From Bacteroidales bacterium (GTDB lineage: Bacteria > Bacteroidota > Bacteroidia > Bacteroidales > UBA3663): a stretch of DNA of 64,000 bases. Position 1 is the stretch's first letter; every line of letters starts with the position of its first letter. Where the stretch lies: the NCBI GenBank assembly GCA_045640225.1, contig JAZUEP010000136.1, positions 13,771 through 77,770 on the forward strand, written 5' to 3'. Both the position numbers and the translations under genes were made by a program. A model generated the notes under the pieces. That model was not told where the DNA came from. It did no database searches and was given only the letters and a program-made list of their open reading frames with translations. Of this stretch, positions 44,123 to 48,824 are shown in pieces.

Positions 44123-44662
44123 TTAGAGGCAGAGGGCGCGAATCAGATGCTGAAACTCGCGATGCTCGAACTGCTCGGTGAATACCTCGCGACCCAGCTG
44201 CTGACGAAGCTCCTCGATCGTCCAGAACTTACCCTCGTCCACCTCATCGTGGTCAGGTGTAAGCTTGCCGTTATGCACAATATGGAAGGCCGTAACCAGC
44301 TCGCGCTCGCAGCTCGACTGCCAGATGTACTGATACATGAATCGTGGTTCGACGCGTAGGCGCAGGCCCAACTCTTCACGAGCTTCGCGCTTGACGGCCT
44401 CCTCGAGAGTCTCGCCGAAATCGACATGTCCGCCTACAGCCGTATCCCAGAGGCCAGGAGCAATATCCTTGGTCATAGAACGCTTCTGGAGGTAAAGACG
44501 ACCCATAAGGTCGGTGATGTGAAGATGTACAACGGGATGAAGAGCCATCGAGCCACCATGGCAATAGGCACGAGTAGCCTTGCCAACGACCTGACCCTCC
44601 TCGTTGATGATGGGAAACATCTCAGGCTTCTCTTTCTTGTCGGGGTATTGTAGTTCGATCAT
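44123..44662 (-). CDS. NUDIX hydrolase
   Basis: Nudix box GGHVDFGETLEEAVKREAREELGL. The start is set at the ATG at 44662 (MIELQYPDKK...) because the longer track ORF would run through the TATCTTTG box and into the WYL gene. Confidence 0.8.
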   Translation of the reverse strand: MIELQYPDKKEKPEMFPIINEEGQVVGKATRAYCHGGSMALHPVVHLHITDLMGRLYLQKRSMTKDIAPGLWDTAVGGHVDFGETLEEAVKREAREELGLRLRVEPRFMYQYIWQSSCERELVTAFHIVHNGKLTPDHDEVDEGKFWTIEELRQQLGREVFTEQFEHREFQHLIRALCL

Positions 44663-44697
44663 AGTAATGAGTGAGGAATGTAGTAACTTTCGGGGCG

Positions 44698-44705
44698 CAA
44701 AGATA
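44698..44705 (-). promoter_or_regulatory. -7 promoter box (TATCTTTG) for the NUDIX gene
   Basis: Plus strand reads CAAAGATA, 35 nt upstream of the ATG at 44662. Confidence 0.45.
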
Positions 44706-44732
44706 GCAATTTTGGCAGATAATTCCAAATTT

Positions 44733-45653
44733 TCAGTCCATTTTTTTCGGATTATCATCGTATAGAAGCGCCATCTGTTGCACATTGTCACGCATCTGCT
44801 CGCGAAGAGAATGAGGTTCGAGGACTTCGACACCCGGGCCATAACTGAGCAGATGGTTAACTAGATCGGGAGTGGTTGCCATCAAGAACTCAAAGATGCA
44901 GCCATCATCCAAAAACTGTACCACTCGCTGAGAATGATGAATAGGCAAAGTCCGAAGATAATTGGACCAGAATTTATTTGCACGAATACGAATGAAGTTC
45001 GGCGCCTGATCTCCTCCCGTATGCACACCGAAATAAAAGGAGAAGTAATCCGAAGCATGAAAATCAGCTGGCGGCTCGAAGTCAATGTTGTTCAGGATAC
45101 GAAGCTGACGAATACGATCAAGTGCAAAGACTTGGAGATGTGGACGATGATCCTTTCGACCAAGAAGATACCAACGTTGTTGTGACAGTTTGACGCAATA
45201 AGGTTCGATGAAACTCGTGATAGGCTCTGAATCGGCAAATTTGCGGTAATCCATCTCGAGTGCCTTGCCTCTTTTCATTGCCTGGACTATAGTAGAAAGA
45301 TGATATTGGCCAGAAGGGATTCCCTCGAATAGAATACGACTGCGCAAATGACGTCCCTCAACAACTATCTGGTTAATCGTGTAGGATGAAATTACCCATT
45401 CGGCAGCCAGTAGATTCTCGTTTGCCGCAATGTAGTATCTATAATGATCATGCAGATCACACTCGATGGCAACTCCCAACATATCAAAGGCAGAACTGAT
45501 AGCTCGGTGCAACTTGAGGCGAGACAACTCACTTCCACCACTGAGCTCCTCGTTTTCCCGCCAAAGCTGATCAAGTTCCCGCAATGTGAGTCTTCGGTAG
45601 TTTAACAGCACATTTACAAGCCAAATACAGACACGAGAGCGAATATTTTCCAT
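44733..45653 (-). CDS. WYL domain-containing transcriptional regulator (wHTH-WYL-WCX architecture)
   Basis: N-terminal HTH-like RRLTLRELDQLW, then the WYL core YCVKLSQQRWYLLGRKDHRPHLQVFALDRI. Third codon positions are clearly A/T-rich compared with all neighbouring genes. Confidence 0.7.
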   Translation of the reverse strand: MENIRSRVCIWLVNVLLNYRRLTLRELDQLWRENEELSGGSELSRLKLHRAISSAFDMLGVAIECDLHDHYRYYIAANENLLAAEWVISSYTINQIVVEGRHLRSRILFEGIPSGQYHLSTIVQAMKRGKALEMDYRKFADSEPITSFIEPYCVKLSQQRWYLLGRKDHRPHLQVFALDRIRQLRILNNIDFEPPADFHASDYFSFYFGVHTGGDQAPNFIRIRANKFWSNYLRTLPIHHSQRVVQFLDDGCIFEFLMATTPDLVNHLLSYGPGVEVLEPHSLREQMRDNVQQMALLYDDNPKKMD

Positions 45654-45724
45654 AAAATAGAAAAAAATGCGTTTTTTTTATCATTTTTTTTCAACCTGTA
45701 TCAATAAACGATACATGTTCCTCT

Positions 45725-45732
45725 TATCTTTG
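45725..45732 (+). promoter_or_regulatory. -7 promoter box (TATCTTTG) in front of the small membrane ORF
   Basis: TATCTTTG followed by CACC, 77 nt upstream of the ATG at 45810, with an A-rich leader in between. Confidence 0.45.
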
Positions 45733-45809
45733 CACCGTCAAAACGACAAAAACGTTCAGACAAACTAAAAAGAACAATTAATAACAACCAAATAAAAAGA
45801 CAAACAATT

Positions 45810-46094
45810 ATGAAGAAGCTTGCAATTGTCCTCGTGATCGCATCAATGGTAGTAATGGATCTTATGCTTTCAGGCATGAATGTAGTAGCCGGGATTCTGC
45901 TGATAGCCGGTGCCGGAATGGTCTGCGCGTTTCTGGATTATTGTGGAAACGAATCTCACAGCAAGACCAGCATTACACATGCTGCACGACAGAACCGCCG
46001 CGGACAACTCACTTCAGGACACGAATCTTCATGCGCACGTCAGTCCTGGGACGGTTGGCAACATTGCTCTCAAGAGCTGCAATACGCGAAATAA
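45810..46094 (+). CDS. Small hypothetical membrane protein (two predicted TM segments)
   Basis: MKKLAIVLVIASMVVMDLMLSGMNVVAGILLIAGAGMVCAFL, followed by a polar tail. It has its own promoter box. The last 86 nt overlap the 3' end of the convergent PPIase gene. Confidence 0.4.
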   Translation: MKKLAIVLVIASMVVMDLMLSGMNVVAGILLIAGAGMVCAFLDYCGNESHSKTSITHAARQNRRGQLTSGHESSCARQSWDGWQHCSQELQYAK

Positions 46095-46842
46095 CATCGA
46101 GGCCATCAACGACCTCTCCATAACAGGTATACTGGCCATAGATGTGATAAGCGCCACCGATGGTAGTGTAAGCTTCACGCTCAAGGGGTGTGAAGTATCG
46201 TGTACCAGGCTGCAGACGCGCGATGCTGTCGATATCGTGATTGATGGCACGTGCCAAGCGGTTATAGGCTGCCACGTCAGTCGTTTTGTAGAAAGCCAGC
46301 GAATCCTTGACGGACTGCGTCATGACCTTGCGTTGTGCCACCTTGCGCGCATCGGCATTATGGGTCTTTTCCCACTGGTTGAGTGTAGCCTCGCTCATCT
46401 GGTAACCTTCGACAATGAAGAACATCGACATGTCGGAATTGACCACGCCCTCGCGATGCGGAGCCATCAGGGCACCTTTCTTGGGCACATGATGCGGACG
46501 TATCTCGGCAGGAATCTCCTCGCTGGTATCACCCCATCCGATAGACTGGCCGGGCAAGGCGGTCTTCGAGTCGGGAGCACCACCCTGAATCATGAACGTA
46601 GGGATGACACGGCCGAAGAGTGATCCATCGTAATACCCTGAACGCACCTTCTGCAGAAAGTTGGCCACAGTGCGCGGACAATCGTCGTAGAGCATCACTC
46701 GCATGTTGCCCATATTGGTCTCGATGAGGACTTCGTGAGTCTGGGCCGAAAGGTTAGAACCATTGCGTGCACCTTTACTCGAATGGAAGAAAGGAGAGAA
46801 TAGCAACGCCAACAAGAAAAGAGCCTTAAAGAGATATTTCAT
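46009..46842 (-). CDS. Cyclophilin-type peptidyl-prolyl cis-trans isomerase (secreted)
   Basis: A signal peptide is present. VLIETNMGNMRVMLYDDCPRTVANFLQKVRSGYYDGSLFGRVIPTFMIQGG ... FFIV. Confidence 0.85.
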   Translation of the reverse strand: MKYLFKALFLLALLFSPFFHSSKGARNGSNLSAQTHEVLIETNMGNMRVMLYDDCPRTVANFLQKVRSGYYDGSLFGRVIPTFMIQGGAPDSKTALPGQSIGWGDTSEEIPAEIRPHHVPKKGALMAPHREGVVNSDMSMFFIVEGYQMSEATLNQWEKTHNADARKVAQRKVMTQSVKDSLAFYKTTDVAAYNRLARAINHDIDSIARLQPGTRYFTPLEREAYTTIGGAYHIYGQYTCYGEVVDGLDVISRIAALESNVANRPRTDVRMKIRVLK

Positions 46843-46932: not shown

Positions 46933-47178
46933 TTACTCGTCCGCTTCTGCCTCGGGATTTGCGTTTTCGGCAAGTACCTTCTTAGCGTCTTCCAAGTCCA
47001 GCTCGTTGACGAGAATCGGTATCTCGCACGCACTGTTGGCAATGCCCAGACCACCAATCCTGACATCGGCAAACGATGCACCTTGTATCAGACAAGGTAT
47101 ACCTGCCGACTCGAGAGCGCCTTTGATTACTTCGGCCTCAAACGAGTTCCAACACGAGGTAAGTCTGACAAGTGCCAT
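46933..47178 (-). CDS. DUF2007 (putative signal-transducing) domain protein
   Basis: MALVRLTSCWNSFEAEVIKGALESAGIPCLIQG. The track start at 47187 is a TTG; the ATG at 47178 is preferred. Confidence 0.55.
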   Translation of the reverse strand: MALVRLTSCWNSFEAEVIKGALESAGIPCLIQGASFADVRIGGLGIANSACEIPILVNELDLEDAKKVLAENANPEAEADE

Positions 47179-47183
47179 GGTTA

Positions 47184-48824
<1,641 letters not shown>

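Follow-up and report, generated by a model that had tools for sequence, protein, structure and literature searches.

WYL-domain regulators are emerging as LexA-independent alarm switches, and to our knowledge all of the cases studied come from Proteobacteria and Actinobacteria and sense single-stranded DNA (ssDNA). Here we describe a WYL gene of a Bacteroidales bacterium that stands back to back with a gene for a small, predicted two-helix membrane protein in a 64,000-nucleotide (nt) stretch of assembly GCA_045640225.1 (contig JAZUEP010000136.1, positions 13,771 to 77,770; hereafter the window). We propose, with a probability of about 0.5, that the WYL protein is a ligand-gated local regulator that controls the small effector of the inner membrane, together with a few accessory genes, via a DriD-like site at the -33 position. 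The closest described system is DriD-DidA of Caulobacter crescentus (PMC4211646, PMC9186387, PMC10853764, PMC13004042), in which DriD drives DidA, a small single-transmembrane (TM) protein that inhibits cell division (PMC4211646). DriD sites have the form CGxC-N7-GxCG, lie over an absent -35 element at a constant distance from the -10 element, and occur also before driD itself (PMC10853764, PMC13004042). In Acinetobacter, the WYL activator DdaA drives the division inhibitor AciT from a CGAC-N7-GTCG-type site (PMC13010146).

The first-pass annotation had recognized a 306-residue (aa) WYL protein by its QQRWYLLG motif, and both the list of open reading frames (ORFs) and our hidden Markov model (HMM) searches against Pfam bear this out, recovering a WYL and a WCX domain (Table 1). 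At the N-terminus, no Pfam helix-turn-helix model matches; the AlphaFold2 model (mean pLDDT 73.8) places a winged helix there (helices at residues 2-19, 24-33, and 45-59, strands at 63-66 and 72-75), followed by a helical linker, the WYL barrel, and the WCX domain. In a Foldseek ranking of this model, full-length DriD (8tp8) comes first (E 1.8e-12, with alignments spanning 326-342 columns), followed by PafBC and then CapW/BrxR, and an hmmsearch profile search of the PDB agrees, finding the DriD C-domain at 2e-11. Judged from sequence and predicted structure, the protein is one of the winged helix-turn-helix (wHTH)-WYL-WCX factors, nearest to DriD and PafBC, and DriD, itself a homodimer-type factor of this build, is its best match in both respects. 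PADLOC matches are limited to generic WYL models (9e-32) and to a Cas3c model in its WYL-bearing part, and the wider family comprises 2243 proteins at E <= 1e-10, in varied contexts.

The likeness to DriD does not extend to the ligand pocket, and sequence identity between the two is only 17-22%. DriD contacts ssDNA through Y168, R176, R178, Y192, R204, R207, Y240, and R288 (PMC9186387). In an alignment to PafB/C and DriD, residues Q174 (Q or A), A177, and P262 stand where DriD has R204, R207, and R288, and S147 (C in relatives) replaces the canonical arginine of the RxVxP motif (RtveP); the equivalence to DriD R176/R178 is deduced via the PafC alignment only. Two pocket aromatics are retained, Y162 corresponding to DriD Y192 and F176 to DriD W206, with H211 at the position of DriD Y240. 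Because the pocket arginines are replaced (S/C147, Q/A174, A177, P262), ssDNA sensing as in DriD, PafBC, and CapW is doubtful for this WYL protein, and residue conservation does not support it.

Promoter comparisons point to a candidate site for such a factor. The TATCTTTG box, the A-rich 77-nt leader, and the 94-codon ORF behind it were all found exactly as the first-pass annotation had them. No TTTG -33 element lies upstream of the small-gene -7 box. In each of the 18 promoters compared, orthologous and paralogous, this box is the same or nearly so; leaders in relatives range from 32 to 87 nt, and the window holds 24 occurrences of TANNTTTG, with 14.4 +/- 3.9 expected. Anchoring the 18 promoters on the -7 box reveals a dyad with a 7-nt spacer at a fixed distance, its centre always 19 nt before the box. 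In the window, the dyad reads AACCTGTATC-AATAAAC-GATACATGTT, and its centre lies 53 nt ahead of the WYL start codon and at about -31 of the small-gene promoter. The spacer is AT-rich throughout the window's clade, and in other lineages the arms read ACATGTAAC/GTTACATGT, GGTGTATC/G(T/C)AACACC, and GGTTGCATC/GACCCAACC. Across 15 promoter regions, the arms pair in 79.3% of cells, compared with 68.5 +/- 1.9 in shuffles (none of 500 attains the observed figure) and 25-46% in slid registers, and five of the ten pairs change on both sides. Rfam yields no matching family. The layout resembles that of DriD in its half-sites with a 7-nt AT-rich spacer, its fixed distance to the -10 or -7 element, its position over the missing -35 or -33 element, and its occurrence also before the regulator's own gene; the promoter type and the sigma factor differ, the promoter here being of the Bacteroidetes -33/-7 kind. 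DdaA sites share the geometry, with a 7-nt spacer between half-sites that cover the -35 position of -35-less promoters (PMC13010146).

Other upstream motifs were seen in paralogous promoters. WYL paralogues in the genus (L009, L011, L012; ~40% identical) stand divergently to a short-chain dehydrogenase gene and share a TCAAGTTGGCA motif upstream of the WYL start, and a sister pair at a phosphoglucomutase locus carries CTGGGCA(G/A)(A/G)AATTTGGCAC at the same distance from the -7 box. A sigma-54-like reading of the TTGGCA motifs in the paralogous promoters was rejected by eye on spacing.

The small ORF, which the first-pass annotation had put forward as a small protein gene, is conserved, and its codon pattern marks it as a real gene under purifying selection: in seven orthologues, third positions vary at 55 of 66 codons, compared with 27 first and 19 second positions, and pairwise dN/dS is 0.03-0.3. 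The two hydrophobic helices reported for the N-terminus are evident both from hydropathy (Kyte-Doolittle means of 2.51 for residues 4-21 and 2.57 for residues 25-42) and from the AlphaFold2 hairpin (helix 3-21, turn 22-24, helix 25-47). Lysines and arginines at both ends imply, by the positive-inside rule, that both termini would be cytoplasmic. The family is tiny: 34 clusters came out of 5.8 billion proteins by word-indexed profile search, and 24 matches out of 1.84 billion representatives searched exhaustively by HMM; none of these members is named or has a Pfam domain, and Pfam, NCBIfam, PADLOC, and PHROGs return nothing for the small protein itself. Conserved throughout the family are MKK, helix 1, the turn D17-L-x-L-S-G-x-N, helix 2, D43, and a basic tail with one of two motifs, TSITxAARQ or, in the sister clade, KYVSKQVSATF. 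That the TSITxAARQ tail is a mere conserved terminator hairpin was rejected, since the changes are synonymous third-position ones and the hairpin is not kept. The tail motif suggests a specific protein partner rather than plain membrane damage.

The 3' end of the gene is a lineage-specific matter. Its 86-nt overlap with the cyclophilin gene, an observation of the first-pass annotation, is confirmed at 46009-46094. In the 78-aa form, the stops of the small gene and of cyclophilin lie end to end; the window's clade lacks 38 nt of that form, and as this deletion takes the ancestral stop with it, the frame extends to 46094, with all 92-94-aa forms ending in ...SWDGWQ(H/R)CSQELQ(Y/C)AK. As read from the frames, cyclophilin wobble positions should coincide with codon position 2 of the 94-aa tail, so that similarity of the tail among lineages needs no selection of its own. 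A functional 94-aa overlap is not supported, since the overlap arises from the deletion and its conservation is explained by cyclophilin on the opposite strand. The convergent cyclophilin transcript could overlap the small-gene 3' end only in the 92-94-aa lineage.

The pairing of the two genes is itself conserved. Relatives' loci come from metagenome-assembled genomes (MAGs) of uncultured Bacteroidales from rumen and omasum. Six same-genus genomes have the order IMP dehydrogenase (IMPDH), cyclophilin, small gene, WYL, with identities of 92-93% for IMPDH, 79-85% for cyclophilin, 50-62% for the small gene, and 56-58% for WYL. At least 17 other lineages carry the trio of WYL, small gene, and cyclophilin, and many of the related contigs are short. 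Divergent small gene/WYL pairs beside cyclophilin were read at loci L002-L007 and L045-L053, and the trio in nine metagenome contigs (L066, L068, L070, L093-L095, L107-L109), which include the most distant small-protein relative followed (44% identical); some of these contigs repeat the window's whole order of CotH, radical SAM (rSAM), NUDIX, WYL, small gene, and cyclophilin. The gene 3' of WYL varies among NUDIX (window), glycoside hydrolase genes of families GH43 and GH9 (six relatives), and an outer-membrane protein (OMP) barrel gene (two), the last belonging to a sister pair that lies between the OMP-barrel gene and phosphoglucomutase in two species (G006, G022). At every recovered locus encoding the small protein, in two chromosomal contexts, the small gene adjoins WYL, and the divergent pair seen in the first-pass annotation is therefore a true conserved one. 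Because WYL keeps no partner but the small gene across lineages, we take the pair to be old, mostly vertical, and moved as a unit at least once. The GH43 and GH9-like glycoside hydrolase genes of the six relatives (L028:4999-8375) stand head-to-tail behind WYL, in the place of NUDIX.

The first-pass annotation had read the low GC content of the WYL gene and its near lack of shadow ORFs as consistent with foreign origin. Both observations stand. Among the 48 ORFs of the window, the WYL gene (GC 0.455) has the lowest GC at third codon positions (GC3), 0.443 against a window mean of 0.658 (standard deviation, sd, 0.081), and its longest other-frame ORFs reach only 48-83 aa, compared with 237-269 aa in GC-rich neighbour genes. 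The 2574 long ORFs of the 4.05-Mb assembly average a GC3 of 0.641 (sd 0.121), and 7.6% of them lie at or below the WYL gene; the deviation is real, not extreme. In relatives, the GC3 of WYL equals that of its neighbours (0.61 vs 0.62 in L066, 0.76 vs 0.79 in L070). With orthologous trios in many lineages and GC3 equal to the flanks there, we reject a recent foreign islet. What remains of the islet idea is movement of the whole pair, at least once, to the phosphoglucomutase locus in two species, and a separate history on the finer scale described below. Fifteen other genus members have cyclophilin and IMPDH without the pair (1.5 kb of flank examined), and in 9 of these 15, for which longer flanks were read, different genes adjoin cyclophilin. 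An empty NUDIX-cyclophilin site was not found among the relatives; the NUDIX-rSAM block lies elsewhere in them, so insertion boundaries cannot be defined from an empty site.

The finer scale emerges from comparison with L107, a near-identical strain in which NUDIX is 99.4%, cyclophilin 98.6%, and the small protein 96.8% identical, with flanking DNA 93-100% identical at the nt level. In contrast, the WYL proteins of the two strains share only 68.6% identity. The divergence is confined to 44880-45709, where nt identity falls to 48-82% and synonymous sites (dS) are saturated. The last mismatch, at 45709, falls on the final base of the operator spacer; at the other edge, mismatches turn dense from 44877-44884, near WYL codon 257, and residues 258-306 are identical. 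Over residues 1-257, the two alleles are 63% identical, as distant as orthologues from other species (57-68%). By these sequence comparisons, the segment is an allelic cassette that near-identical strains have exchanged by recombination. Both alleles have a GC3 of 0.44-0.45, and more distant orthologues match their flanks; the low-GC signal therefore marks a segment with its own history, on the scale of an allele and not of a gene island.

The cassette joins a DNA-binding domain to one operator arm, and the two co-vary. The L107-type recognition helix HRI(R/K)LQR occurs in three other lineages, always with proximal arm AACATGCTAC. Residue 49 of the recognition helix is Q with GCTAC at 4 of 4 loci, H with G(T/C)ATC at 2 of 2, and N with GTAAC at both loci of the window's clade. 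The small protein, however, is 95-97% identical beside two regulator alleles that differ at 37% of residues 1-257, and an effector that is nearly unchanged beside both has not co-diversified with its regulator. Regulator and proximal half-site are proposed to evolve fast and to be exchanged between strains as a cassette, with the effector constant. The WYL alleles look mosaic, which suggests module shuffling among lineages. In one further protein (P0038, L108), the wHTH is of the L107 type, yet residues 241-257 resemble the window allele.

We also searched the genome for further copies of the operator. The assembly is a MAG with an estimated contamination of 5.5%, and it is therefore uncertain whether contigs C115 and C89 belong to the same organism. 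In its 4.05 Mb (G000), the exact 6-N7-6 operator core has two occurrences, the second on contig C115 (C115:5248-5266; L084:1434-1452), where it forms a perfect 10+10 palindrome, AACCTGTATC-CGATTTC-GATACAGGTT, and stands at the same 9-nt distance from a GATATTTG box. Behind this copy come a 203-aa coiled-coil gene and a 140-aa gene, and a GNAT toxin-like gene lies next to them. The coiled-coil gene has only sub-threshold coiled-coil matches in Pfam and PHROGs and none in PADLOC, and because it is sporadic among relatives it is probably part of a mobile element. No third operator was found in the genome at <=2 mismatches apart from one in the first 700 bases of C89 (minus strand, site at ~300-335), where the C115 element recurs in decayed form and with its gene cut short; in the reversed genome, used as a control, no site occurs at <=3 mismatches. 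The C89 operator matches the L107 type at 23 of 23 bases, and the intact C115 copy is of this genome's own type. In relatives, an arm variant with the same spacing precedes a Strawberry-notch-like helicase gene and an IetA-like AAA ATPase gene, possibly a defence-like, uncharacterised pair that may be under WYL control, and also a secreted-protein gene on a Rep3 plasmid-like contig. The regulon is proposed to be very small and to be joined by accessory or mobile genes. Upstream of the C115 operator lies a low-GC stretch with the GNAT toxin-like gene and two small antitoxin-like ORFs. On G009 C22 (L081:5424-10466), and likewise on G012 C16, the relatives' operator variant and a -7 box stand before a 1097-aa helicase (AAA_34 + Helicase_C_4) and a 548-aa IetA-like AAA ATPase, a pair that adjoins Cys/Met metabolism genes.

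As a plausible mechanism, the wHTH-WYL-WCX protein would bind the 10-N7-10 dyad at 45693-45719, probably as a dimer, and the dyad would then occupy the missing -33 position of the small-gene promoter. A ligand held by the WYL-WCX part, quite possibly not ssDNA, would switch transcription. For the direction of the switch, we lean slightly to DriD-like activation at a -33-less promoter over CapW/BrxR-like de-repression. The product would be an inner-membrane two-helix hairpin of ~66-78 aa with a basic cytoplasmic tail bearing TSITxAARQ, in keeping with DriD, whose output includes a small inner-membrane protein of ~70 aa. The tail may dock on a specific membrane-associated partner, and this could lead to growth or division arrest or to envelope stress, as with DidA, SidA, and AciT; that the effector acts in a division, growth, or envelope checkpoint in this manner is a tentative suggestion, held well below even odds.

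Several observations weigh against the proposal of a DriD-like local regulator. A repressor would suit a dyad over the promoter just as well, and the co-variation of recognition helix and arm is weakened because the arm lies ~50 nt from the gene, where linkage and shared ancestry also apply. A -7 box of the WYL gene's own, sought by eye, yielded one-mismatch candidates only. The three canonical WYL-pocket arginines and the counterpart of DriD R288 are all replaced. DidA, unlike the small protein, has one TM helix and an unrelated sequence, and didA is not adjacent to driD. Finally, our genome scan found no operator copy near recA or other repair genes, unlike in the DriD, PafBC, and DdaA regulons; the DriD regulon includes recA, recJ, dnaG, and bapE, and here no repair gene carries the operator. 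A role as master DNA-damage regulator is thus not supported. DdaA-AciT is like the system proposed here in combining a WYL activator, an N7 dyad-type site, and a division inhibitor as output (PMC13010146), but DdaA is such a master regulator (recA, uvrA, ssb), and its site lies ~160 bp upstream of aciT (PMC13010146). Nothing in the searched text of that paper shows AciT to be a two-helix membrane protein, and aciT and ddaA do not form a divergent pair (PMC13010146).

A more specific version of the proposal, which we regard as quite unlikely, describes a Bacteroidales variant of the WYL-driven checkpoint with a non-ssDNA pocket, activation at -33-less promoters in the place of sigma region 4, a new two-helix family of division or growth-arrest proteins as its constant output, and an allele polymorphism to which mobile elements are tuned. 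Recognition helix and proximal half-site would then be kept polymorphic within the species, and co-resident mobile elements would tune their promoters to the allele of the host, C115 to this genome's own allele and C89 to that of the other strain.

The best-surviving alternative, to our minds unlikely, is a minimal sensor-effector cassette for defence or abortive infection, in which the WYL protein would silence a holin-like two-helix toxin until a phage signal arrives, and the toxin would then depolarise the membrane and kill or arrest the cell. Class II holins and small membrane toxins are small and have two helices, both ends in the cytoplasm, and a charged C-terminal tail. The small protein has this build (two TM helices by hydropathy and AlphaFold2, both ends inside by the positive-inside rule, a charged C-terminus) at 66-94 aa. 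In contrast to class II holins, it is chromosomal and vertically inherited and has a conserved tail motif, no PHROG match, and no recognizable antitoxin: the ORF list and Pfam matches of the window hold no flanking phage gene and no endolysin lysis cassette, the ORF list has no candidate antitoxin ORF beside the small gene, and Rfam matches no RNA there. WYL regulators do govern BREX, CBASS, and other defence loci (PMC9122601, PMC11662680), and the PADLOC WYL models match at 9e-32. CapW/BrxR (PMC11662680, PMC9122601; PDB 7tb5, 7tb6, 9c5g, 7qfz, 7t8k) share with our regulator the three-domain build (Foldseek E ~1e-6 to 1e-4), an inverted-repeat operator over the promoter of a divergent or adjacent target, and probable autoregulation. 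However, their targets are multi-gene systems in defence islands, whereas here a single orphan mini-protein lies among housekeeping genes, and the resemblance is weaker than to DriD and PafBC. As is often seen in conflict genes, the regulator evolves fast (2-4x faster than the genes around it) and passes between near-identical strains as an allelic cassette; its operator recurs before the helicase and IetA-like ATPase in relatives and before the mobile-element gene by the GNAT toxin-like gene here. Against this stand the vertical descent of the pair over deep divergence (cyclophilin 79-92%, WYL 48-69% identical), the absence of any known adjoining defence gene or defence island by Pfam and PADLOC, a small protein without a PADLOC or PHROG match, tail motifs that suggest a specific partner and not a generic pore, and an effector that is not diversifying (95-97% identical with two very different regulators). 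The membrane-disrupting toxin or abortive-infection role put forward in the first-pass annotation is possible for the small protein, but unsupported.

It is improbable that the two genes are coincidental neighbours, with the dyad bound by another factor or acting as a DNA or RNA hairpin, the WYL protein regulating something else, e.g., its co-oriented downstream genes, and the small protein serving a housekeeping function. The GH43 and GH9 genes that follow WYL head-to-tail in six relatives, and the varied housekeeping contexts of more distant WYL family members, would fit this explanation, as would the ability of the dyad to form a hairpin (-17.4 kcal/mol for folding of the entire spacer, z = -1.97). 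Yet the downstream gene changes between lineages and the small gene never does, the small-protein family occurs only beside this WYL clade, Rfam has no match, and the extra dyads keep their promoter spacing without a WYL gene beside them, which argues against a hairpin in the WYL 5' untranslated region. Least probable is that the small protein anchors or antagonises the WYL protein through its tail, e.g., at the invariant C-terminal 49 residues, in the way that some transcription factors are sequestered by membrane proteins: strict divergent pairing with a shared control region, the matching of TSITxAARQ with the WYL clade at >=47% identity and of KYVSKQVSATF with the clade at ~40%, and a WYL C-terminus unchanged over 49 residues across the allele swap speak for such a tether, but a small protein 95-97% constant beside regulators that differ by 37% over residues 1-257 cannot read the variable sensor and DNA-binding parts, other genes with the same operator fit an output regulon, and we know of no WYL factor regulated by a membrane-tether partner.

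The coordinates of the locus are collected in Table 1. Its neighbours by Pfam are NUDIX, a radical-SAM methylthiotransferase, cyclophilin, and IMPDH. The mechanical NUDIX ORF (44123-44842, 239 aa) is over-extended and runs into the WYL 3' end; the NUDIX gene has its own TATCTTTG box at 44698-44705 on the minus strand, inside the 70-nt spacer past the WYL stop. A DUF2007 gene (46933-47187) lies between cyclophilin and IMPDH, as it does in L107 and L108; by gene lists and spacing, L070 and several genus relatives have no gene there, and this junction varies too.

Table 1 Features of the WYL/small-gene locus in window coordinates
Feature	Position	Strand	Remarks
NUDIX gene, corrected	44123-44662	-	179 aa as in relatives; real start 44662
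WYL gene ORF	44733-45653	-	306 aa; QQRWYLLG = residues 158-165
WCX domain (residues 222-295)	44769-44990	-	Pfam PF25583, 2.5e-13
WYL domain (residues 118-186)	45096-45302	-	Pfam PF13280, 4.5e-15; non-canonical ligand pocket
wHTH (residues 1-78)	45420-45653	-	From AlphaFold2 secondary structure and Foldseek; recognition helix ~44-59 (SRLKLHRAISSAFDML)
Allelic cassette	44880-45709		WYL codons 1 to ~257, WYL 5' leader, left operator arm, spacer
Candidate operator AACCTGTATC-AATAAAC-GATACATGTT	45693-45719		Centre 45706; 9/10 arm pairs; 19 nt before -7 box
-7 box TATCTTTG of small gene	45725-45732	+	Bacteroidetes-type
A-rich 5' leader	45733-45809	+	77 nt; 35-nt insertion relative to 78-aa group
Small-gene ORF	45810-46094	+	94 codons
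Conserved core, residues 1-66	45810-46007	+	MKK, helix 1, turn SGMN, helix 2, D43, basic tail with TSITHAARQ
Lineage-specific tail, residues 67-94	46008-46094	+	Antisense through last 28 cyclophilin codons
Cyclophilin gene	46009-46842	-	Convergent with small gene; overlap 46009-46094 (86 nt)

The locus presents a clean, minimal WYL case in Bacteroidales, with one regulator, one operator, and one constant mini-protein, an altered ligand pocket, and a different promoter grammar. By our protein searches, the small-protein family appears to be undescribed and confined to rumen Bacteroidales. The system is suited to asking what else WYL domains sense and how WYL factors act at -33/-7 promoters. The swap, which cuts exactly in the operator spacer, is an unusually sharp natural case in which a transcription factor and its half-site have moved as one, and it suggests selection for regulator diversity.

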